From a virus (lineage: Duplodnaviria > Caudoviricetes): a stretch of DNA of 43,463 bases. Positions within the stretch are counted from its first letter, which is position 1. The number at the start of each line of letters is the position of its first letter. Location: IMG/VR virus record IMGVR_UViG_3300031519_000051, positions 1-43,463 of that record; one strand, given 5' to 3'. The position numbers and the translations under genes were made by a program. The notes below the pieces were generated by a model. It worked only from the letters and a program-made list of their open reading frames with translations, searched no databases and had not been told where the DNA came from. This document shows positions 5,560-35,759 of the stretch, in pieces.

Positions 5560-5565
5560 TATTTA
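5560..5565 (-). promoter_or_regulatory. Late promoter TAAATA for 4482..5528
   Basis: TAAATA core about 30 nt upstream of the ATG. Confidence 0.55.
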
Positions 5566-5692
5566 TGTATTAACTTCGTTAATACAAGTTTTCGTTAGCA
5601 CTCAAACTGTTTACTTCGTAATTAGTTATGTCTAACTAATTGAATTAATATGAATATGAATATTAATATGCATTATTACGAATGTAATAATG
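5566..5692. repeat. Tandem cluster of five short perfect inverted repeats in very AT-rich DNA
   Basis: TGTATTAAC-TTC-GTTAATACA (5566-5586); TTAC-TTC-GTAA (5611-5621); AATTAGTTA-TGTC-TAACTAATT (5620-5641); ATTAATA-N10-TATTAAT (5644-5667); CATTATTAC-GAAT-GTAATAATG (5671-5692). Confidence 0.85.
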
Positions 5693-5699
5693 TTTAAGT

Positions 5700-6108
5700 T
5701 TCATGTAGATTGTTTCAGTCAGACGGAACCTGTTACGGTCCCATCTAATCTCAAAATGCGCTTCATGTGAGTCTGCACCAGCCGAGACTTGGAAGTAGGT
5801 AATTGTTTATACACTTAGTTCAATGGGCTCTGACCTTACCCAACCTACGTCGACATTATGTAACATAAAGGATACATTAAGCTAGTTAATGCAATCTCTA
5901 TAGTACAATATTCCCTCGCTTCGTTCCTAGTGCTAAAGGGTTTTTATGAACTGTGTCGTGTTTTTTGACCGCCAACAATGCAATCTATATCAACAAGTGA
6001 GCCCAATTTGTTTGGTGGCTTCCGCACTCAGGTGCGTCAATCAATATGTACGTGTGCTTCTATACGAGAGCTTTTTCCACAGCGGTATTATAATCTGGCC
6101 CGCCAACC
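5700..6108 (-). ncRNA. Putative large structured non-coding RNA of unrecognised family, directly downstream of the GIY-YIG gene
   Basis: No credible ORF. About 42% GC by hand count versus about 24% in the adjacent spacer. Several stems have mismatches that are G-U pairs only on the minus strand (5721-5746, 5865-5901, 6081-6104), plus long-range complementary blocks. Confidence 0.6.
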
Positions 6109-6558
6109 TTATGTGTTGGAATGTTTTGCCTGTATGTGATGTTCTAGCAATGCCTGTTTGAGTTTGTCTGATCCGCCGACTCTAACATTTATAATACCAT
6201 TATAGTATTCATCTGTTTCAAGTACTCTGCGATCAAACTGTTCTCTTGCCTCTATGTAGGACATTTCGCCTCTACCTTTACATAGGTATAGTATTTCTCT
6301 TGTAAACTTATCTTCGCCTAGTGTTGCAACGTCTGCGTTCAGTCTATCACTGGAGCCATAGTATTCTCTCCAGTCACTTTCTTTAGTTCCGCGACGTTTA
6401 TTTTTCTTGCCTTTAAGTGGTGGCTTAGTAGTTTTAAACTTTGCTAGTTTTTTACCTATATATTTTTGGCCTGTAGTGGTGTTAGTAATAAGATATACAA
6501 ATCCTTCGTAGTCGTCTGGTATTTGGTCAATCTTGTTGCCTTCGTAAGTCCACTGCAT
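6109..6558 (-). CDS. Stand-alone GIY-YIG family endonuclease
   Basis: GFVYLITN...KYIGKK (GIY-YIG motif), ESDWREYYGSS, FTREIL, E-x-x-EQF, YYN. 149 aa with no appended DNA-binding domain. Confidence 0.85.
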   Translation of the reverse strand: MQWTYEGNKIDQIPDDYEGFVYLITNTTTGQKYIGKKLAKFKTTKPPLKGKKNKRRGTKESDWREYYGSSDRLNADVATLGEDKFTREILYLCKGRGEMSYIEAREQFDRRVLETDEYYNGIINVRVGGSDKLKQALLEHHIQAKHSNT

Positions 6559-6575
6559 AGTGATACTTACCGTGC

Positions 6576-6779
6576 CTATTGTTTTTTTGCCTCGATCTTG
6601 GTTTTAAACTTTTCGTGTATCTCGTCGCCTCTAATTTTGCTTAGTCTCCGTATCTCTCTAAGCCACTTACGGCTTGCTCGATGCGTTCTAAAGCTCAATC
6701 TCTTTTCAAAGTTTTCATTTGCTTTAAAATATTCTAAGTATGCTTTTACTAATTGATCGTGTATGTCATCATCAATCAT
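6576..6779 (-). CDS. Small basic helical protein, histone H1-like Hc1-type (tentative)
   Basis: 67 aa; ENFEK...HRASRKWLREIRRLSKIR resembles the Hc1 helical-hairpin pattern (RARKxxxE). Start overlaps the hemC stop. Confidence 0.45.
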   Translation of the reverse strand: MIDDDIHDQLVKAYLEYFKANENFEKRLSFRTHRASRKWLREIRRLSKIRGDEIHEKFKTKIEAKKQ

Positions 6780-7515
6780 AATACATTGCCTTTAATGTAA
6801 TAGGATTACTACCTGTTGCATGTGCAGCTAATTTTGTATGACAATCGCCACCAATGCCTTTTAAAAATGCACGTTCAACTTGTGCCTGGGCATATGTTTT
6901 GGCATGATTTATTTTTGCAACCACATCAATAGTAGCATTGTCGTCTTTTCTAGTTTGTAATGCAATCACTCCTTGACCAACAGCCGGAATAGTTGGAATT
7001 TTAATCCATGTACGTCTAATATCTAACGCTTGTAGCCCAGCTTCTGCTAATACTATAGCATCATATTCTTTATTGTCAAGTTTTTTTAGACGTGTGTCTA
7101 TATTTCCACGTATTGGTTTAAGTTTAATGTCTAAATTTTTGTATAATTCTTTTAGTTGAGCAGTTCTTCTTGGACTGCTAGTACCAATCGTACAACCGTA
7201 ACCAACACTACCTAAAATAACATCATGCGGGCTATTTCTTTTAAGCATAGCACTAACAACTAGTTCTGGATGTTCTTCTCCAGGCATATCTTTTAAACTA
7301 TGAACAGCAACATCAATATCACTGTTTAATAAACTTGTTTCAATTGTACTGGTAAAAACTCCCTTGCCACCTATTTCGTAAATAGGTACATCAGGATTTA
7401 AATCACCAACAGTTTTTATAATTACAATTTCTGTTTCACAAGACAGTTCAGCACATACCCTTTCAGCGTATGCAAGTGCTAGTTTACTTCCTCGTACTCC
7501 AATTCTAAGTTTCAT
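6772..7515 (-). CDS. hemC: Hydroxymethylbilane synthase (porphobilinogen deaminase), C-terminally shortened
   Basis: IGVRGSKLAL, KTVGD, GGKGVF, AVHSLKDMP (catalytic Asp), IGTSSPRRTAQL, IRGNIDTRLKKL, PAVGQG, ERAFL..IGGDC (cofactor-binding Cys). Confidence 0.95.
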   Translation of the reverse strand: MKLRIGVRGSKLALAYAERVCAELSCETEIVIIKTVGDLNPDVPIYEIGGKGVFTSTIETSLLNSDIDVAVHSLKDMPGEEHPELVVSAMLKRNSPHDVILGSVGYGCTIGTSSPRRTAQLKELYKNLDIKLKPIRGNIDTRLKKLDNKEYDAIVLAEAGLQALDIRRTWIKIPTIPAVGQGVIALQTRKDDNATIDVVAKINHAKTYAQAQVERAFLKGIGGDCHTKLAAHATGSNPITLKAMYYD

Positions 7516-20861: not shown

Positions 20862-20862
<1 letters not shown>

Positions 20863-23800
20863 TGGCATATAATAACGATCAATCAGAACAGCCACTACCG
20901 GCAGGAGACGACGGTAGAAAACGCAAAAGTTCATCTCACTTACCTCGTTACTTTAGAACACAACCTAATAAAAAGTTCCTAAATAGTACGTTAGATCAAT
21001 TAATACAACCAGGCGTAGTTGAAAAACTAAATGCATATGTTGGCAGAGAAACTGCAAAAGCATATAAGTCTACAGACAATTATGTTTCAGATGTGTCAAC
21101 TGATAGAATTAATTACCAATTAGAACCTGCTAGTGTTATTAAAGACAATCTTGGCAATGTAAGTTTTTATAAAGATTATAATGACTATGTTAACCAGTTA
21201 AATATTTTTAACAAAGGCACAGCTGATCACAGTATTTTTAATCAGCAAGAATATTATGCATGGGATCCCCATGTAGATTGGGACAAGTTAACTAACTTCC
21301 GTGAATATTATTGGTTGCCTAATGGCCCACAAAGTTTTGGAGTTCCGGGTAATACTATAGATGTAGAAAGCACTTATACTGTACGTATCGGTGACAATGT
21401 CGATAACGAGACATATATCTTTAGTCCTGATGGATTAACAAATAACCCTACAATTACATTGTATCGAGGTATGACGTATAAGTTTGATATAGATACACCA
21501 AACTTACCCTTTACAATTAAAACAAAGAAAACTTTAGAAAGTGGATTTGATTTAGACAGTTCTAGTATACTAGTATTAGAAGGAGTTAGTGTGCAAGGTC
21601 TAGAAAAGGGCGTAAGCACATTACAGTTAGGAACAGATACACCTGACATACTTTATTACATGGCATCTAATGATCTGCAAGCAAGCGGAACTATTGTTGT
21701 AAAAGATATTACTGAAGCAACGTTTATTGATGTTGAAAAAGAAATATTAGGTAAGAAAACTTACAAAGCTAGTAACGGAGTAAATCTGTCAAACGGAATG
21801 AAAGTATATTTTACTGGGCAAGTACAACCTACAACATATGCTGAAGGTGCATTTTATATAGAAGGTGTTGGAGATAAAATACGTCTTATTCCGGAAGTAG
21901 ATTTAAATGTTCCAACAGAATTTACTGATGATATTGATATAGCATTTGATGCAAACGGGTTTGACAGGATGCCTTTTGGTAAAGCAATTGGTTATCCTAA
22001 AGAAAAAGATTACATTGTAATTAATAGATCTGCAACAGATGGTAATTTATGGTCAAGATATAACAGATGGTATCATAAATCAGTAATAGAAACTAGTGCT
22101 GCACAAAATAACGAGCCAGTTGAAATTGATCAATTACAACGTGCTAAACGTCCTATTATTGAATTTGAAGCAGATTTAAAATTACATAATTTTGGTACAA
22201 AGTCAAAACAAGACGTTGACTTAGTTGACGACTATACAACAGACGTGTTTAGTACTATTGAAGGTAGTGTAGGATATAACGTTGACGGCATTGATATTGT
22301 TAAAGGCATGCGTATATTATTTACAGCTGACCCTGATATACTTGTAAAAGGTAGAATCTTTGAAGTTGATATTATTAAGTTTGCTAATGGGGGATCAACT
22401 AATAGTCAAATTTCATTAAAAGAAGTTACTGACAGTATACCTCAAACAAATGAAGTAGTATTGTCATTAGGCGGAACGTCTTATAAAGGTAAAATGTTAT
22501 ATTATGCTAACAATAAATGGAATGTAACACAAGAAAAATCTAGTCGCAATCAGGCTCCGTTATTTGATATTTTTGACAGCCTTGGAAACAGTTATGCAGA
22601 TACAACTACATACGAAGCATCAACATTTTCTGGTACAAAGTTGTTTAGTTATAAACCTGGCACAGGTACTAATGACACCGAATTAGGAATTCCTATTAGT
22701 TATAGAAGTATTTCAAATGTTGGTGATATAGTATTTAATTATGATATTTCGCAAGATAGTATGACACATACTGTTGATAATGATATTATTACAAAAGGTA
22801 CTGATATAGGTTTTTTAAGAAAGTATTCTAGTTTAACTAGTTTTACTTCTGTAACTGGATGGAAAAAAGTACCAACTAAAAGCGAGCAAGTTGTTATTAG
22901 ACAATATACTTTTGATAATACAACAGCAGGATTTAAAATAGATGTATATGAACAAAGTGGATTATTAACAGATCTTTGGACAAGAGTATATCTTAATAAT
23001 AAATTACAATTTAAAGATGTTAACTATACTATTACTAATGATGTAAACAATAATGCAGTTATTAACTTTATTAAAACACCAACAATAAATGATGTTGTCA
23101 CAATTAGAACTAAATCGGCAACAATAAAAAATAAAAATGGGTATTATGAAATACCAGCATCATTAGAACGCAACCCAAAAAATGAAAGTTTAAAAACATT
23201 TACTTTAGGCGAAGTTAATGATCATGTTTCATCTATAGTAGAAAATTTAGATAATTTTAATGGTGTATTTCCAGGAGTAGGTAATTTAAGAGATATTAGT
23301 GACCTTTCAGTTTATGGTAGACGATTCTTACAACATAGTGCTCCAATGAATTTAACACTATATCATATTACTAATAAAGATTCAAATATTGTTAAAAGCC
23401 TTGATTATTCAAGACAAGAGTATAATAAATTTAAACGTTTGTTTATGCAAAACGCTGAAGAGTCAGAATTCCAAGGTAATACTAAACAGCATGTTGATTA
23501 TATTTTACAAACATTGAATTTAAATAAATCAAAAGATATGCCGTTTTATTTTACTGATATGGTTGCAATTGGTGCTTCTATAAAAACAGAACATATTATT
23601 TTAGATATTAAAGAAACATTTTTTCCGCTATCGGCAACATTTTCCTTAACAACTCCTAGTAAAAAAGCAGTGCATGTTTATAATAACGGAGTTCAGTTAG
23701 TACACGGTAGAGATTATACATTTAATACAGACGGCTTTGCTATTATAACATCAACAAAAGCACAAGACGATGTTATTGAAATATACGAATATGAAACTAC

Positions 23801-26800
23801 TAACGGTAGTTATATCCCAGCAACTCCGACTAAGTTAGGTTTATATCCGGCATATGTACCTGAGCTATATACTGACACTACTTACCGAGTGCCACAACAA
23901 GTAATACAAGGACATGACGGAAGTAGATTTATTGCTTATGGCGATTACAGAGACGATCTATTATTAGAATTAGAAAGAAGAATTTATAATAATATTAAAG
24001 TAAGCTACAATACTGAAATGTTAGATATTCATGATCTTGTTCCAAGCGAATATAGAAAAACTGGAGTTTTACATAGCGAAATTAATAAATCAATGCTAGG
24101 TGGATTTATACAATGGAGTAGACTTGTAGATCAAGATTACACATTGCATAACTTTTTTGAACGTACAGATAGATTTACATTTAATTATAATCAAGCTAGT
24201 ACACCAAATAATAATAGTCTTCCAGGATTTTGGAGACAGATTTATAAACAAGCATTTGATACAGATAGGCCACATTCTCATCCTTGGGAAATGTTAGGAT
24301 TAAGTGTAATGCCAAGTTGGTGGATTACACAATACGGACCTGCTCCTTACACTAAAGATAACTTATTAATGTGGACAGATATACAGGATGGGATATTAAG
24401 AGAACCAAATGTAAAATATAAAGTACTTAATAATTACAAACGCCCAGGATTTATTAATCATATTCCGGTAGATGAAAGTGGAAATCTTTTACCTCCGCTA
24501 GATGCAGGTTGGATAACAAATTATCAACCTGATACAATTAAAAGTAGTTTTGTATTTGGTGACGGTGCTCCAGTAGAAACAGCCTGGAGGAACAGTTCTG
24601 ATTATGCATTCTCGCTTATTAAAGCATTCATATTAAACAAACCAAGTGTAATATTTGCAACAGGATTTGATAGAATTAATCAAATTAGAAACACAGCAAA
24701 TGAAATAGTTTATAAACCAACTAATAAGCGTATTACTCTTTCTGATATTATTTTTCCAAGTATGATAACAGATACTACTCAAACATTTACAAGCGGACTT
24801 GTAAACTATGTTGCAGATTACTTAACTAGTGATGTATTAAAATTTTATAAAACTTATAAAAATGATATTAAAACAATTAATAATCAAATTGGATTCAAGT
24901 TAGCTGGATTTACTGACAAAGACAAATTTAAATTAATACTTGATAGTAGAACACCGACTAATGAAGGTAATGTTTTTATACCTGATGAAAACTATAAAAT
25001 ATTTTTAAATACTAGTTCGCCTGTTGTAAAAACAGATTATAGCGGTGTAATAATTGAACGTAGAACTGACGGGTATGTTATGAAAGGTTACAGTCAAGAT
25101 TCTGCAACTTTTAAATATTTTGTACCACTAAAAAAACAAAGCGATCCTAGTATTAATATTGGCGGAATAAGCGAATCTTATGTTGTATGGTCTCCAGAAA
25201 ATACATATATTATAGGACAAAATGTAGAGCATCAAGGAACTTTTTATCGCACAAAAACACAACATGTAAGTACTACTACATTTGTAGATGAAAATTTTGC
25301 TAAATTACCAAACTTACCATTAATAGGCGGCAGAGATGCATTTTTACGTAAGGAATACCAAACAACAACCGTAGGCGAAATTAATTACGGTCACTTGTTT
25401 ACAGAAATACAAGAAGTAATTGATTTCTTGTTAGGTTACGGTGAATATTTAAAATCACAAGGATTTGTTTTTGATTACTTTGAAGGTAATGAAAAGGTTG
25501 TTCTTGATTGGAGACATTCAGTAAGAGAATTTTTGTTTTGGACAACTCAAAAATGGGCTGAAAATTCAGTTATTACTCTTAGCCCAGCAAGTTCACAAGT
25601 CAAATTAACATCATCTTATTCAATGGTAGATAATATATTTGATGGATTTTACGGATATAGTTTATACAAAGCCGATGGTGCAAAATTAAGTGAAGACTTT
25701 GCTTCGTTAGGTAGAGAGCCTAACGAATTTGTTTTACGTCCTAAGAATACTGCTGACGGAATATATCACATTAGTTTACCATTAATACAAAAAGAACATG
25801 TTGTATTAATTGATAACAATACAGTATTTGGAGATGTAATATTTGATCAGCAACCGGGATACAGACAAGAAAGAATTAAAGTATTAGGTTACAGAACTAG
25901 TGAATGGGACGGTAGTTTAAATATACCAGGATTTATATATGATGATGCAGAAGTGCATGATTGGGAATCTTGGACAGACTATGACATTGGCGTAGTTATT
26001 AAAAATAAAGAATTTTATTACAGTGCTCCTAACAAAGTTCCAGGAACAGAAACATTTAATTCAAAAGATTGGAATATACTTTTAGAAAAACCTAAAGGCG
26101 GCTTGTATGCAAACTTCGAATATAAAACAAATCAGTTTGCTGATTTCTATGATCTAGATAGTGATAATTTTGATGTTGAGCAACAGCGATTAGCACAGCA
26201 TTTAATAGGTTATCAAAAACGTCAATATTTAGAAAATATTGTTAATGATGATGTAAGTCAATATAAGTTTTATCAAGGATTTATTCAAGACAAAGGAACT
26301 AAAAATGCATTAACTAAACTTTTTGATGCACTAGCAAGTGATGATAAAGATAGTTTAGATTTTTATGAAGAGTGGGCAGTAAAAGACGGTCAGTATGGAG
26401 CCAGCGAAGGGTTTGATGATGTAATCTTTAGACTTGATGAATCAAAATTTAGATTAACGCCACAACCGATTGAATTAGTAACTTCAACTACTGGAGAAGA
26501 AACTGACTTAATTTATAGAATTAAACCTTACGAAGTTTATCAGAAGTCTAAAAATTATGATCATTCGCCCTTTCCTGAAAAGTATGTCTTTGATAGTTAT
26601 ACACGAAATGCAGGATATGTTAATCAGCAAGATGTTAGAGGCATTGTAACAAACTATAATAATATTATTGATTTTAATTTTAGTGATGTTGGTGAAGGAA
26701 GTTACATATGGGTTGGTAATGAACAAAGAGATTGGAATGTTTATAAACATATTGATACTCCACACGTAATTGAAAATATTTCTAAGTCAACAACATCTGC

Positions 26801-29800
26801 AACAGGTACAGAGTTAGTTGAAGTTAGACTACGATCAAATCCAACTGATATTACAGCAGATCAAATAATTGGAATAAGTCAAGTTTATCATCCTGATAGT
26901 TCAAAAGAAACATTTGAAGGATTTTTTGTTGTAGATTCTGTTGTTAACAATATTATAACAATACAAGTTACAACTAAGCTAACACAAGAGATTGTAGACA
27001 TTGTTGGAAATGTTACAACTTTTACATCAGTAAGAGCAGCAAATGTTGTCGAAGCAAACAGCATTGCACAAAAAGATTTACAAAAAGATGATTTACTATG
27101 GGTTGATAGTGTTACAGCAAATAATGAATGGGCAGTTTACAAAAATACTAATCACTTTGCTGAACAACATAGGGTTTATAATCCTCAATCAGGTAGTGAC
27201 CATTTATATGGAACTGAGTTAGCAGTTGATGATAGAAATACAACATTAATTATTGGGTCACCTGATAATGCTGATGGTAAAGTTTTTGTATATCATCGTC
27301 CATCAAATAGACTTACATATACATTAACACAAATTCTTGAGCCAACAAAATATGGAAACGATTTAGAACGATTTGGTAAAGCAGTAGCAATAAGTCCAGA
27401 TGCAAAATATCTTGTAATTGGATCTCCTAATGCATCAAATATTAAAACAAAATATCAAGGTTCGTTTATAAACACTAATGATTATTCTAAAGGAAGTATT
27501 GTTTTAAAAGACGACCAGTTATGGAAATCGTTGGTAGATATTGAAGGTCAAGAAGGCAACATACAGTTTAATAGTTTTTCAAGTACAACAGAAACAATAT
27601 CATCTTTAGGATTAGAAAATAATAATACTGACGCAGTTAAAGTACTATTGGTAGGAAACTATGCAATTGATCCGGCAACTAGTGCGTTAGCATTTCCAAA
27701 TATAGCTGTAAATCACATGTTAGTTAGAGCTCCTAAAGACTTGTACGAAGGAAGCGGTATTAATGATCAAATATTGCTTAATTGGAATAGCATAACTTAT
27801 ACTAATCAAGACTTAGCACCTCTTACTGTAAGAGCGCCTTTTGCTGGTGAACATGCTGTAATTACTGATACATTTTTAAGTCAAGAACATACAATACAAC
27901 ATAAAGTTGATACTATATTATTTGTTGATACTGCATCAAATGCTGTTATAGACGGTAATATATTACAAACAGCTAATGCATCAGGAACAGTTAGTTATGT
28001 GTATGCAACAGGCGGCGACTTATTAATATACTTAAAAAATGTTAACGGAACATTTAATCAAGAAGATAGTTTGTTTAGAGATGACGGCGATTTTATTGGA
28101 CAGTATGTTAAACAAGGACCAATAGATACAATTGATACTTCTGCAGTCTGGGGCGGCTATTGGTGGATTGATACACCGAGCTATACTCCGTCAACAACTA
28201 CAAGTAATACAGACAAAGCTACTGGATTAGTATACTACGATGTAGTTACAGATAGCACTCCTACAGGAAGATACTATTATAATAGTTTAGATTATGCAAC
28301 TACTGACGTTAGTAGTTTAAATGTTATAAATTCTGAAATGCGTACTTTAACTTATAGAGGAACGCCGGGCGCAGGTGGTTCAAATAGTACAATACCAAGT
28401 GATTTGTATATAATGAGAGCTCCAAAAGCATTAACTGATGTATTGTCTCCGGGTAATAATGTAAGCATGTTTGTTAACCAGTTACCGCAGTATACAACAG
28501 GAAACTTTAAAGATTTAACAACAATTGGACTATCAACAACAGTTACAAATACTACAAAACCAATTTACGACATATGGGACGGATACATTAATCTAAACTT
28601 TACTAAATTTGATGTTGACGGTAATCCATTTGAACCTCGTATTGGAGATACAGTAGTTGATACTAATACTGGTGCAACAGCAGAAGTAATATTTTATCAA
28701 AGGAACTCGTTGGCAGTTACAGTATTTGTAAAAAATATTACAGGTAATTGGTCGGTAGGAGATGACTACGGTCAAAATGCTGAAATTAAATTTATTGGCA
28801 CACCTGCAGATCCGCTTGTTTCATATCAAGTTGATCGTATTATGGGAGAGATACAATCTGTGTCTCTTGGATATGCAACTTCGGGCATTGGTAAACTATT
28901 AGTATTCCAAGCGCCAAGTAACATTAATTTAAATTCTGAAGACACATTAATTGATATAGAATATTGGTTCTATATTCAAGGCAACGTTCAAGGTATTCCT
29001 CGTCCTGCAAATGCACCTTCTTCGATTAACAACGAATGGCAACAAGTATTTAAAATACCTGCAGAATCTACAGGAACCGCAAGTGGACTTACTAACGAAG
29101 GTGTTTACACAGTTTATCAGCAAGCAGCATCTGGAAGATACGATCCTATAGACACATATACAGTTCCTGAAAAACAAGGAAACTTTAAATTAGGTTCTAG
29201 TATAAAAATTACAAAGCATAATGATTTATACAGAACTATGATACATGCGGAAGGTGAGCAAACACAAAGTCTTCCAGGGCGTATATATTTCTTAAAAACT
29301 GGTATTGAAAACAACTTAACTTATACTTGGGAATATGCAAAAAACAAAAAGTTTAAAGGAACATTTAGTGACAGTATAAATTATTTTACTGGTGATATAG
29401 TATATAGAGAAAATCCAGCTGTATCAGGAACTGGTGTATTATATATTGCAAAAACAAATATTGCATCAGGCACATTTACCACAACTGATTGGACAAGTAC
29501 TGACGACTTAGTTGACTATATAGGATATATTCCTAATACAACTGGCACTAGTGTTGTTAATGATAGTACAGATGGAAGCACAGTATTAGATTCTACTTTA
29601 CTTTCAGCATTTGGACAAGAATTTGACACAAGTAAAAACGGCGATGTAATAGTTGCTTCAGCAACCTATGATAATTCTAAACCAAATCAAATAGTTGTTT
29701 ATAGACTTGATAATGGATTCTTTTATAGAGGACAAGAAATACAGGCACCGGATAAAACTAGTGCGTTTGGACATGCACTAGCAGTATCGGATGACGGCAT

Positions 29801-32800
29801 GTATATTGCAGTAAGTGCTCCTTATAATGATGATTATAAATTATATCAAGGTAAAGTTTATATCTATCATCAAGTAAATGGCGTGTTTACATTATTGCAA
29901 GAATTACAGAGTCCTAATAACGAACGTGCAGAACGATTTGGTTGGAGACTCCAATACGATGGCGAAAAATTACATGTCACTTCACGTAATGCAGATGCAA
30001 CAGATCATACTACATTTGACACTAAGAACACAGTATTTGATAATTCGTTTACAAAAATCATCGAAACACGACATGACACCGGAGTTGTTTTTGTATATGA
30101 AAAAACACCTAACGGAATGTTGTATGCACAATCAATACAAATTACAGATCAAGATATAAATGCATTTGGTAGAAATATTTTAGCAAAAAATAATCATTTT
30201 TATGTTGGGTTACCTAGTAAAGTTGTAAGTGCTAAAGAAGGTGCAATAGTAGACTTTGTAATTGACGATAGTGCTAAAATGTGGACAACACATAGATCAT
30301 CAAATATAACTGTTGATGTTAATAAAATTAAAAAGATATTCTTATATAATATTGTAGAAGGCGAGTTACTAACTTATCTAGATTATATTGATCCTATTCA
30401 AGGAAAAGTTGCAGGCCCTGCAGAACAAGAATTAACATATAAAACATATAACGACCCGGCAACATATAGCGTTTCAACTAACACTAGTGCAATATTAGAT
30501 GCAACTAGTTCTTGGGGACCTGAACAAGTTGGCGAAGTTTGGTGGAATTTAAATAATGCTAAGTTTTATAACCCTTATCAAGGATCAATAGAATATGCCA
30601 CACAAAATTGGAATTCAGTATTTGAAGGAAATTCTATTAATGTATATGAATGGGTAGAATCAGATGTAGTGCCAAGTGCATGGGACCTACAAGCCGATAC
30701 TGAAAAAGGATTTGCAAAAGGATATAGCGGAACAAGTATATACCAAGATACGGCATATGCAACTAGACGTATTTACAACGATGTTTCTAAAACGTTTAAA
30801 ACAATGTACTATTTTTGGGTACAGAATAAAACTATTGTACCTGATGCTGAATTTAGATCTATTAGTATTCAAGACATTGTAGCGTATATTACAGATCCTG
30901 CAGGAAAAGGACATAAATTTATTGCACTAATTGGTCCAAGCAAGTTTGTATTATATAACTGTCAGTCATTGATTAGAGGAACTGATGTAGGATTAAATGT
31001 ACAATTTTGGACTATTGATAATCAAGATCAAAATATACATAATCAATACCAAATTATTAGTGAAGGACTTGAAACAAGTCAACCAAATACTGATGTAGTT
31101 AAAAAATGGTATGACAGTTTAATTGGTTATGACGCCCAAGGAAGAGTAGTTCCAGATCCAACACTGAGTGAAAAAGAAAAATACGGAGCACTTTATAGAC
31201 CTAGACAAGGATGGTTTAAAAATAAAAGTGAAGCTCTAAAACAGTTTATAGAACGTACAAATACTGTATTAAAAGAAAATATTATTGTTGGTGATAAAGA
31301 TATTAGCGATTTAAGTTTGTCAGAACCTGCAATATCTTTAACTAGCGGGATGTATGATGTTGCAATTGATACGTATGCAGATATTTCTACTGTAGGAACC
31401 TCAGATGTTAAAACAGCAACACTAGCATTAACTATAGTAAACGGAAAAATTACTCAAGTTACTGTTACTGACGCAGGTAAAGGATATCGTGTTGTTCCAA
31501 ATATTACAATTAACGGCGCAGGCTTAGGTGCTATATTAACACCAACGATAGACGGCCAAGGCAGAGTTTCTAATGTTGTAATAACTAATCCAGGTAATAA
31601 TTATAATGCTAGTACTACAGCAACAGTTCGCAACTTTAGTGTATTTGTTAAAGCAGACGAAACATTAACAGGTAAATGGGCATTATATGAGAGAATTATA
31701 TCAGCTAGTTCTTGGAACAGAACACGTAGTCAATCCTATAATGTTTCACTTTATTGGAATTATGTTGATTGGTATGCAACTGATTATAATGAATCAACAG
31801 AAATAGACTACTTAATTGACTATAGTTATCAGTTAACTAGTTTAAATAATCCTCTTGGAAGTATAGTTAAAATTGCTAACATTGGTACAGGCGGATGGCT
31901 ACTATTAGAAAAAACATCGTTAATTGATACTGAAGATTATACACAAAATTATAAAACAATTGGTAGACAAAATGGAACACTTGCATTTAAAGATACATTA
32001 TATAATGCTGTAGCAGCAAATACTGGATTTGATACTATAAGTTTTGATACAAAAATTTATGATAGCGAACCAACAACTGAGCTACGCATTATCTTAGAAG
32101 CAATCCGAGATGATATTTTAATTGACGAATTACTAGTTGAATTTAATAAACTGTTCTTTGCAGGATTACGATATGTGTTTTCTGAACAAACATATGTTGA
32201 TTGGGCATTTAAAACTAGCTTTATTAAAGCCAAACATAATGTTGGACAACTACGTGAAGATATTACGTTTAATAATGATAATTTACCAAGTTACGAAGCA
32301 TATGTAAAAGAAGTTAAACCATTCTCTACAAAAATTAGAGAATATTTAAGTGCGTATGAAAGATTAGAAGCTACACAAACAGTTACAACTGACTTTGATT
32401 TACCTGCATCTTATAGTGCTATAGAAGGTAAGATTATACCAAATAATGTAAAAGTTATTAATAGCGTATTAATTGGCACAGATGCAGACTTAGAAACTTA
32501 TCCTAATAAAAATTGGTTAGATAATAGTAGCTATAGTATAACAAGCGTTATGCCAGTTGACCAAGGTAGTGGTTATACTAATCCACCGTCCTTAACAGTT
32601 ACAGGTGGCGGCGGCTCTGGTGTTACTTTAAAATCATATTTAGGATCAAACGGTAATGTTACTAAAGTTGATATCATAACACCCGGAACAGGATTTTATT
32701 CAGCTCCGGTAATAGCAGTTAATGGCAACTTAGTTGAAGGCGGCAGACATGCTACGTTTAGTGTTAAGTTAGGAAACAATCCTGTAAGAGGAATTACTAC

Positions 32801-35759
32801 TACAGTTAGATTTGATAGAACAACAGGCACATACGTATATGTTAAAACAGCCCAAACAGAAACATTTACTGCATCGGGTTCACAGTTTGCGTTTAATTTA
32901 AATTGGCCAATTGATTTAAAGATTACTGATGTCACAGTTACGAAAAATAACTTAGAAATGTTAAGTAATGAATATACATATACTAATAAATTAGATGCTA
33001 CTGCTAGTTACGAAAGATACTACGGTCAAATTGAATTTATTACAAAACCATTAAAAGATGATATTATTATTGTTAATTATAACTTATCACCTGACTTATA
33101 TCAAGCACAAGATCGAATTGCAAAATTATATACTCCACAAGAAGGCCAACTAGGTAAAGAATTAAGTCAACTTATGACTGGTATTGATTATGGCGGAGTT
33201 GAAGTTAAGAGCTTTGGATTTGCTCAAGGACAGGGTTGGGATTCAGATGCATGGTTTGGTTCAACTTGGGATAGTTACGATAATACATTTAATGATGAAA
33301 TATTTAAATTAGGCGATAGTACTACATTGTTTAATTTTAGTGCGCCTTTGGTAACTGGTGTAGAATATCATGTTTATAAAAATGGTGTTAGGATTGATGA
33401 TCCAAACTTTGGTACAGGAAATCCTGTAACAAACGTAAATGCCGTTATGCAAAGTATTACTGGTGCAGGACAAACAGCTTGGTCTAGAACAGATGATGAT
33501 TATGATGTTTCAAACTATGTAGCATTTAATGAAGAAGTTGTTGCATTTGGAAATACTGATGTTGTAATATTTAGAAAATCAACAAGTGACGGAACATTCC
33601 TACCAAATGAGCAGACATACGATAGTATTATACAAGGTGGTAACTTAAACTATTCAACAGCAACTGGTTTAGAAAGTGCTGATATTACAATAGATGGCGA
33701 CGGATTTGTAACACCTACTACAAGTGCAGGTCCTGAAGAACAAGTTCCAGGACAATTACTTGATACTGTAGATATTAAAGTGTTTGAACGTCCGTCAGGC
33801 GGCGGTAGTCCTATAACTTCAGCTGTATATACCGGCGACGGTGCAACTACTGAATATGCAATTGAAACATCTCCGATTACAGAAGAATCATTATTTGTTA
33901 AAATTAATAATGCAATACAAACAGCATATACAATAGACTACACAACAAATAAAATTACGTTTACAACAGCACCAGCAATAGGTGATACTATAAACTTAGT
34001 TACACTAGGTGTAAGTGGATCAAAGGTAATTGATATTGATACTATTACAACTGACGGTAGTACTGTGTCGTTCTTAACTAATGTACGTTATGCAGCAAAT
34101 CTACAATATATTATTACACTAAACGGTAAAAACATTGATAATGTTATTAGTAAAAGTAAAGCATCGGATGGAATATCTGGTAATGCATTAATTAAATTTG
34201 CTACTCCGCCTGCAGCAGGACAAGAAATACGCTATGCGTTCTTTGAAGGTGCAGTTGATGTTAAAAATTACAGTCAAGTTAATATAGAAACAATAGTTGC
34301 AGACGGTAGTACTACAGCATACAGTTTAACAAATACTCCTGGCGCTCAAGAACCTGCAAGTTTTAAAACTATTGTAAAAGTAGGTAACAGTGTATTAGAA
34401 GCAGGATACTCAAAACGTTATATTACTACAATAACTAAATTAGAATACGCTATTGAAGACTTCCAATTTCCACCAGGCACACTTACTAGACGACAACTAA
34501 AAGTTTATTTAAATGGTATTGAATTAACTGATACTCAATGGTCATTAGTTGTTGGAAACACATCAGTAATAAGATTAAAAACTGACGTACAACAACAAAA
34601 CGATGATATTCTTGATATATTTGTAGTAACAGATGGTGAATATAGATTTGGTTATATAGATAGTGCATCTGGATTATGGGTATCAACACCTAGTATGATT
34701 TATCTTGATACAGTGTACCCTGAAAATACTCAAATTACAGTTTATCAATTTACTAATCATAATTCACAAGATATACAGAGAATAGAATATGATGTAGTTG
34801 ATAGAATTACGTTAACACCGGGTACAGCTGATTATCAAAAGTACTTGCATTTACAAGCTGGATTAATTGCCCTTAACAAGGAAGCAGTAGATGCCCAGTA
34901 TGTTTGGGTAACTGTTAATAACGAATTATTAATACCAAGTGTACATTACTTTGTTACTGATAATCGTTTGTATGTTAAAATTACAAAACAAATTAATCAA
35001 AATGATACAATACAAGTAATACATTTTGCAGCTCCGACTACACAAAATAAACTAGGCTGGTCGCAATTTAAAGATATGCTTAATAAAACACATTATAAGA
35101 GATTGTCAGATAAAGAAAATGTAACTTTAGCTTTAGATTTATATCAATATGATCAAAGTATTTCAGTTATTAATGGCGAAAATTTACCTGCACCAGTTCC
35201 GGGCTCACGTTCACCAGCAGTACTGTTTATTGAAAGTGAGCGTATAGAATATTTTGTACGTAATGGTAACGTAATTAGTCAGTTTAGACGCGGTACATTA
35301 GGTACTGGAGTTAAAGATGTATATCCCGCAGATACTAGGGTATTAAACTCAGGTGCTGAAAACACAATGCCATACAAAGATGAAACTTTTACAACAGTAT
35401 TCACAGCAGACGGTACAGCAGCAACATATACTTTAGACTTTACGCCAGGTAATATTAACGAATTTGAAGTTTTTGTAGCAGGTACACGTTTACGTAAAAA
35501 TGCTATACAAAGTTATAAGTTTGATAACGTTAACGGCCCTATTGCACAAGATAGTCCCGAAGGTGACGAAACATTACCAGCAGAATTTAGTATAAATGGT
35601 ACTGAATTACAACTACTAAACATTCCAACACAAAATACAAAGGTAATTGTTGTTAGGAAACAAGGAAAAATATGGAAAGATACAGGAGTTGCACTAGCAA
35701 ACAGTGATTCTGATATTGCTAAATTCTTACGTGACGCAACAGTTGACTTGCCGCGATAA
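20862..35759 (+). CDS. Giant virion structural protein (gp7-like baseplate wedge position) with FG-GAP propeller and repeated beta modules
   Basis: 4965-aa uninterrupted ORF coupled to gp6 (TAATG). N-terminal HLPRYF; FIQDKGT..AL..LF (gp7-like); FG-GAP blades; DAGKGY/DQGSGY repeats; several GDG.TT.Y/F modules. Confidence 0.7.

Follow-up and report, generated by a model that had tools for sequence, protein, structure and literature searches.

The stretch of DNA analysed here (the window; 43,463 nt, IMG/VR record IMGVR_UViG_3300031519_000051) is part of a large T4-like phage with portal, baseplate, late sigma factor, gp46/gp47 and hemC genes, and relatives of this phage measure at least 335 kb. 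The hemC gene (porphobilinogen deaminase; 6772-7515, minus strand) is a shortened, phage-borne version directly behind gp46, and a 4965-aa open reading frame (20862-35759, plus strand) gave a weak FG-GAP hit as its sole match. A SegE-like GIY-YIG gene, whose product has no sequence match in the PDB, is followed directly by a structured element of ~420 bases (Table 1). The 5' end of the element overlaps the final codons of this gene. At many loci in jumbo and small phages, a GGCA/AGGCAAA motif, often repeated, lies 5' of the 5' pseudoknot strand (at 6132-6125 in the window). ARAGORN found no tRNA or tmRNA in the window.

Table 1. Features at the locus, in window coordinates and in the order of minus-strand transcription.
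Feature	Position	Strand	Remarks
SegE-like GIY-YIG gene (PF19835, phrog_447)	6558-6109	minus	149 aa; element directly 3' of it
Whole structured element (likely RNA)	5698..6119	minus	approximate extent, 5' pseudoknot strand to end of R2; conserved in homologues
PK1 5' strand, CCAACA	6114..6119	minus	pairs with P7 loop, 5972-5977; 592/594 cells paired
P2, P3, P4	6052..6104	minus	P2 6104-6100 with 6081-6085; P3 6080-6078 with 6052-6054; P4 6071-6069 with 6056-6058
P5	5987..6047	minus	6047-6039 with 5987-5995; conserved tandem U-G/G-U; encloses variable domain with CGCAC/GUGCG hairpin
P7 hairpin	5967..5985	minus	loop closes PK1
B and B2 strands	5947..5961	minus	pair with 5817-5822 and 5811-5814; cross helix C
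P8 hairpin	5913..5940	minus	conserved GGAACGA loop
P9	5858..5909	minus	variable arm
Conserved core	5781..5854	minus	GUC/GGC 5854-5852 with 5781-5783; C/C' 5848-5843 with 5795-5800
Core local hairpin, UGGG/CCCA	5842-5839 with 5824-5827	minus	
R1, inferred guide	5760..5771	minus	CU, one extra C, ACAUGAA (5768-5762), GC
P10 hairpin, then near-invariant UCUGAC	5718..5746	minus	between R1 and R2
R2, inferred target site	5698..5708	minus	11 bp predicted between its plus-strand complement and R1, one a G-T
Template-strand DNA hairpin	5671..5692	plus	immediately follows R2; 9 bp; GAAT loop (many relatives have GAA)
DNA-type mini-hairpin cluster, non-template strand	5566..5621	minus	C(GAA)G at 5621-5611 and 5586-5566
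GAGYG-NN-ARCGA motif	5603-5592	minus	within mini-hairpin cluster
T4-type late-promoter-like ATAAATA	5560..5566	minus	precedes downstream 348-aa gene

A first-pass annotation of the sequence had proposed a pseudoknotted RNA on the minus strand, and all the sequences and coordinates that it quoted, including five G-U positions, were found in the window. Comparing folding energy with shuffled sequence, as it had suggested, gave values at chance level for the window alone (MFE z-scores of -0.92 on the minus and +1.94 on the plus strand), and long-range helices numbered 11 against 14.2 in shuffled sequence at a length of at least 6 bp, and 2 against 3.3 at a length of at least 7 bp. Relatives were gathered by protein (80 loci kept of 599) and by DNA pattern, and the first 200 loci yielded 143 with a full-length element and, below 97% identity, 100 sequences. 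In these 100 non-redundant homologues the 85 proposed pairs were paired in 96.1% of cases, compared to 32-40% when slid by 1-3 bases, and on the minus strand there were 710 G-U cells against 41 A-C cells. Mean folding z for 13 homologues was -2.0 on the sense and -0.4 on the antisense strand. The compensatory changes that were asked of the homologues were present, with tree-based counts of, for example, 21 double changes for PK1, 67 for P5 and 30 for B/B' (AGUUCA/UGAACU). I accept the fold as real because the homologues settle what the single sequence leaves at chance level, and a minus-strand structured nucleic acid with multiple pseudoknots is supported by these comparisons.

PK1 co-varies in all classes of the element and was, like P5, absent from the helices listed in the first-pass annotation. 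That list contained three long-range helices which were taken to cross as pseudoknots, and two of them, B and C, do hold and cross each other: C/C' (GUAGGU/ACCUAC) showed 1 double and 11 wobble changes, and distant classes have GCAGGU/ACCUGC in its place. The third, A/A' (UGGGCUC/GAGCCCA), was wrong: it showed no double change, A-C and G-G mismatches were frequent in it, and each half has a local partner. By this comparative evidence, at least two pseudoknots are real, namely PK1 and B crossing C. The local helices GGCGG/CCGCU (P2; 6 double and 22 wobble changes on the tree) and the 3' hairpin at 5746-5721 (P10; 1 double and 52 wobble changes) were borne out as well. The CGCAC/GUGCG hairpin (6036-6023) carries 37 double changes but is present in only ~63/100 homologues, and the long irregular hairpin at 5901-5865 exists in the window but forms a variable arm that is often swapped for a short GNRA-capped stem in relatives. 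Some core pairs are invariant and thus yield no covariation information.

A candidate helix, GGUCAGA/UCUGACU, is compatible with jumbo-type copies and incompatible with the L226 and L240 classes. A second class of the element (L086, L088, L092, L105, L108, L206 and others) keeps the 3' core, with a different, shorter 5' half that has its own helices. Dispersed palindromic repeats in GC-rich bacterial DNA (L389, L350, L407 and others) share the P10 arm and the CUGAC after it; this may be chance, since the search pattern selected for them.

The element is found in many marine phages and ranges from 282 to 483 nt, with a median of 381 nt (109 elements). Rfam gave no match in the window at the gathering threshold, three chance hits in E-value mode, none of which were at the element, and no match in 10 relatives. 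Of two BLAST searches against cultured phages, one returned only chance matches of 29-46 nt and the other none. A scan of genome contigs gave 7 hits; the 3 real ones are on contigs that look like phage and were binned into metagenome-assembled genomes. L206 and L207, large phage-like contigs whose elements are nearly identical, are both filed in one bacterial metagenome-assembled genome and are probably mis-binned, and this binning was not used as host evidence. Many viral contigs terminate within the element, which most likely reflects assembly breaks at shared sequence. The accessible parts of the literature searched, including PMC5737381, PMC12990946, PMC10690425 and PMC7029224, do not describe the element. 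The Fremin 2023 catalogue contains IMG/VR candidates of up to 151 nt (PMC10690425); in six files of its supplement five motifs and one contig identifier had no match, and fragments of this RNA may be listed in the rest. The element is uncatalogued in the sources searched, and it probably acts in cis.

The heptamer ACAUGAA had been noted to occur twice, flanking the last hairpin; this is real, and turned out to be the most informative feature of the element. It lies within two copies of a longer segment, R1 and, ~60 bases downstream, R2, which are spaced 48-68 nt apart across elements with no frame preference. Comparison at fixed anchors, which is the non-circular test of their identity, showed that R1 equals R2 at core positions 1-6 in 111/111 jumbo-type elements, with all 24 variant cells matching. 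Wider tests placed the repeats by best match, so that identity is partly by construction: among 137 distinct elements of all classes the repeat took 33 forms, the longest shared R1/R2 run was at least 7 nt in 134/137 same-locus versus 49/1390 cross-locus pairs, and positions -2, -1 and +1 to +6 matched in 137/137 given one extra base in R1, while on a parsimony tree of the 122 sequences with enough flank 58/58 events at these eight positions altered both copies, a count somewhat inflated by optimising the register per sequence. The extra R1 base, a one-base bulge, is kept in almost all elements.

Pairing of R1 with R2 through the CAUG palindrome was ruled out, as variants break the palindrome, and so was a third partner on their own strand, as neither the 111 nor the 137 elements showed a consistent same-strand complement. 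The spacing, the lack of a frame preference and the lack of a reverse transcriptase make it unlikely that the repeats flank a Neo-like rolling template: RVT_1 was absent from 5/5 genomes or records searched, two of them complete, and so no enzyme was found in them that could provide a cDNA. Mismatches beyond the core are directional. At +8, R1/R2 reads G/A 58 times and A/G never, and an R1 G stands opposite an R2 G or A in 117/121; at +9, T/C occurs 26 times and C/T never, with R1 C accompanying R2 C in 37/38 and R1 T accompanying T or C in 60/62. Forward-compatible combinations were seen in 112/122 (+8) and 101/122 (+9), reverse ones in 59/122 and 70/122, and +10 gave no signal of wobble direction (122 sequences). 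The direction at +8 and +9 is the one that the wobble rule predicts for R1 paired with the strand complementary to R2, and in the window such pairing would give 11 bp with one bulge and one G-T; most simply, I infer this partner to be the template DNA strand at R2.

The annotation had read the G-U positions as favouring RNA over a DNA cruciform. They do confirm the minus strand, but G-U pairs alone cannot separate RNA from single-stranded DNA; G-T wobbles in DNA behave like G-U. The element might act as single-stranded DNA, in which case the top strand would fold and the top-strand R1 would slip onto the bottom strand at R2. The G-U asymmetry and the wobble direction fit DNA equally, and comparative methods find single-stranded DNA motifs too (parts of PMC5737381). 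Against this, a duplex of ~420 nt would have to open first, and the hairpin loops switch from RNA type to DNA type at R2. Within the element, GNRA loops numbered 41 on the sense strand against 8.4 in shuffled sequence, and 3 on the antisense strand; in the 150 nt 3' of R2, C(GNA)G triloops numbered 64 on the sense and 45 on the antisense strand against at most 1 in shuffled sequence (121 sequences each), with all antisense ones within 20 nt of R2. Sigma-70-like promoters are inserted directly upstream of the element at L006, L007, L117 and L131. RNA is favoured because GNRA loops are confined to the minus strand and because promoter-like motifs lie upstream in some relatives, and a single-stranded DNA element is improbable.

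A promoter search came up empty for the copy in the window, and a scan for an antisense promoter of the RNA I type gave 4 against 5.0 expected, which is chance level; no RNA I equivalent was found. In 7/7 RNA runs, metatranscriptome contigs of relatives extended over the nuclease gene and, for the most part, the element's 5' half; they are unstranded, so that strand, ends and level are not readable from them, and they weakly support expression of the element. Several of these contigs stop near 5817-5848, where a run of unrecorded type breaks too, and the stops were disregarded.

According to parts of PMC13037366, C(GNA)G-type mini-hairpins are far more stable as DNA and are present at the origins of G4, St-1 and alpha3; the one at the St-1 and alpha3 origins is GCGTTAGC, which is also the most frequent form here. 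Generic mini-hairpins follow R2 in 64/97 loci and, on the sense strand, in 16/24 small-phage loci. A GAGYG-N1-2-ARCGA motif, most commonly GAGCGTTAGCGA, lies 39-96 nt past R2 in 72/84 GIY-YIG-linked loci. The region downstream of the element is A+T-rich.

The GIY-YIG gene is the usual upstream neighbour of the element in jumbo phages, without being obligatory. A homologue on the same strand was present at 86/137 elements; 22 lacked it despite 900 nt or more of upstream sequence, and the flanks of 29 were too short to tell. An RNA-guided nuclease, with the RNA directing the upstream protein to R2 as in OMEGA-like pairs, would explain why 86 of the 108 elements with enough flank have this gene and why the RNA begins within its last codons. 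However, the other 22 elements are without it (in L252 a more distant GIY-YIG-like gene takes its place), a complete 34-kb genome carries the element without such a gene, and Melnitz phage encodes a 70% identical GIY-YIG protein with no element in its 141 kb, which makes this pairing highly improbable. Flanking genes vary among loci and no protein partner is common to all. Small ORFs of ~70-95 aa, which fall into two or more unrelated types, one of them bearing a CxxC motif, are inserted between nuclease gene and element at L094, L096, L100, L103, L120, L138, L140 and L160. Relatives of 335, 169 and 168 kb have one element per contig.

Many nuclease-free copies are found in phages of 25-35 kb, often just 5' of the terminase genes and near the head of a long structural operon. 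A late-promoter-like motif, which was defined after viewing the data, lies upstream of 16/19 small-phage copies. In five small genomes ATAAATA was the most intergenic of 21 permutations (17/27; next 0.43), and in the jumbo phage 65/83 were intergenic; this hints that the small phages depend on a T4-like helper. In the tailed phages G005-G009 (L293-L303; 25-35 kb) the element occurs together with T4-type late-promoter motifs, and no polymerase, primase, helicase or sigma factor was recognised; they may be satellites of the jumbo phages. The start of the 47.9-kb G005 record recurs at 27,696, as if one and a half related genomes had been joined in it. An Atlas search with one small-phage neighbour gave weak HTH leads only. 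G006 is a circular, complete phage of 34.3 kb with the element and without a GIY-YIG gene. Those of its 23 ORFs of at least 100 aa that were recognised are structural, except for one acetyltransferase-like ORF and two families of unknown function, and searches for PolB, RNase H, 5'-3' exonuclease and reverse transcriptase in it were empty.

The arrangement in small phages could also mean that an R-loop does form but acts in transcription or packaging, through clamp loading, pausing/antitermination or a start mark for terminase. T4-type late transcription requires the sliding clamp, and both the late-promoter-like motif and the position ahead of the terminase genes and the structural operon agree with this. 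Both adjoining genes in L280 lie on the opposite strand, the window's next gene has its own late-promoter motif and origin-type mini-hairpins come after the element, all of which argue against such a role, and I regard it as distinctly unlikely.

The reading that I favour, by a little better than even judgement, is that of a ColE1-like primer RNA which nucleates an R-loop at a putative origin. The annotation had suggested a ribozyme-like or scaffold RNA of complex fold; the complex fold stands, but the evidence points instead to action in cis through a guide segment. The RNA would fold while attached to RNA polymerase, and when the polymerase moves past R2 the core would position R1 at the transcription bubble's upstream edge. 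R1 could then capture the template strand and block re-annealing, so that the downstream RNA would stay hybridised; an RNase H-type cut or a pause would provide a 3'-OH primer, and mini-hairpins on the displaced strand would load helicase and primase. From hybrid formation onward I infer these steps, and the later ones (hybrid and primer) are established in ColE1 and T4 in the accessible parts of PMC5043065, PMC6317783, PMC3016281 and PMC5778457.

This origin reading is supported by the shared changes of R1 and R2 and their wobble direction, by the mini-hairpins downstream, by the single element on each large contig and by the complete 34-kb circular phage, which carries the element and no recognised replication gene. 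It is weakened by the restriction of downstream motifs to certain classes, with the ColE1-like motif in 1/19 loci without a GIY-YIG gene and the template-strand hairpin in 1/24 small-phage loci, and by the upstream motif in small phages, which looks like a late promoter, while T4 starts its origin transcripts at middle promoters. No switch at the element was seen in the GC skew at the fourfold-degenerate sites of a 335-kb relative, a point against it that carries little information. Nor does it explain the ornate fold, as T4 R-loops need no special sequence, or the bulge, the invariant core and the invariant UCUGAC.

The bulge and the core keep a self-targeting catalytic RNA alive as a rival. 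Here, the core would be an active site and the bulged R1:DNA duplex its substrate, with putative nicking of the template strand or of the RNA itself and a 3'-OH for replication or a genome end as the product. Core letters are near-invariant even where paired, the bulge is kept in almost all elements, no protein partner is shared, and HYER ribozymes cut DNA with a 6-nt recognition site (parts of PMC12990946). On the other hand, none of the Rfam models for group I and group II introns, RNase P and small ribozymes was matched, and the primase-type mini-hairpins would be on the strand displaced by an R-loop, not on the one displaced by a template nick. I consider such catalysis unlikely. Doubtful as well is the wider proposal of a new class of large self-targeting ribozymes that, with a rewritable bulged guide of 9-11 nt, would cut their own DNA or themselves and start phage replication without an initiator protein, in jumbo T4-like phages and in small, possibly parasitic ones alike.

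Among bacterial RNAs, large ornate ones are rare and few have an assigned function, and in this one guide and target have been rewritten together dozens of times in nature. If it is an origin, it would be RNA-guided and initiator-free, in an abundant group of marine jumbo phages, and a second, independent solution to the ColE1 problem; the trigger of the persistent hybrid in ColE1 'remains speculative' in the accessible text of PMC5043065. The favoured reading would add a variant of RNA-primed origins, and a catalytic RNA would be categorically new. That small phages with T4-type late-promoter motifs and no recognised replication genes also carry the element suggests possible satellite-helper pairs. 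A compact DNA-invading RNA with a short, changeable guide could also serve as a tool.

Several known systems were set against the element. A group I intron was rejected on the lack of an Rfam match and on flanking genes that differ among loci, a group II intron or HYER on the lack of an Rfam match (domain V, six-domain fold), and a retron, DGR or DRT2-type RT RNA on the absence of RVT_1 from the five genomes or records searched. RNase P, tmRNA, GOLLD, ROOL, ARRPOF, GEBRO and PAGEV gave no covariance-model match in whole-library scans. HYER and group IIC intron ribozymes are likewise large RNAs with short base-pairing recognition of DNA, whereas the element has no detected group II domains, its target is its own template strand and its catalysis is putative. 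OMEGA and HEARO also place a structured RNA beside a nuclease gene, but here RNA and nuclease occur apart, which led to the rejection of an OMEGA-like pair, the short guide is internal, and nothing points to a transposon. ARRPOF, with its four pseudoknots, GEBRO and PAGEV (Weinberg 2017) are large structured motifs proposed for replication (PMC5737381, PMC12990946); in contrast to the element they are plasmid-borne, and the accessible parts of their descriptions contain no guide-target repeat.

T4 oriF and oriG are close in setting, since the element's host is T4-like, the region downstream is A+T-rich and a 335-kb relative encodes PolB and a T4-RNase-H-like 5'-3' exonuclease. T4 origins use R-loop primers, but they are ~100 bp long and their R-loops form independently of sequence (parts of PMC3016281), while the element is a conserved fold of 280-480 nt with a guide. 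ColE1 RNA II is a long, folded, non-coding RNA that works in cis and leads to a persistent hybrid and a primer (parts of PMC5043065 and PMC6317783), as predicted for the element. The RNA II family was rejected, as BLAST with 5690-5960 against plasmids gave no match and Rfam none either. ColE1 has twin identical segments (G6 at 928 and 1175 in NC_001371), like R1 and R2, and one copy of the element's downstream motif, as GAGCG-N-AGCGA, downstream on the RNA-like strand, at 1332, which I take to lie within the ColE1 primosome site. Masukata and Tomizawa reportedly found in 1990 that the upstream G-run of ColE1 pairs with the template C-run; in the element, by comparative evidence, an upstream segment is identical to a downstream non-template segment and is able to pair with the template strand. 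Judged from sequence, the element appears to work like ColE1 RNA II and is outside that family and every Rfam family tested. It differs from ColE1 in being phage-borne with a pseudoknot-rich fold, and in having a mixed-sequence, bulged and freely co-varying guide 48-68 nt from its target, whereas the ColE1 G-run lies ~250 nt away.
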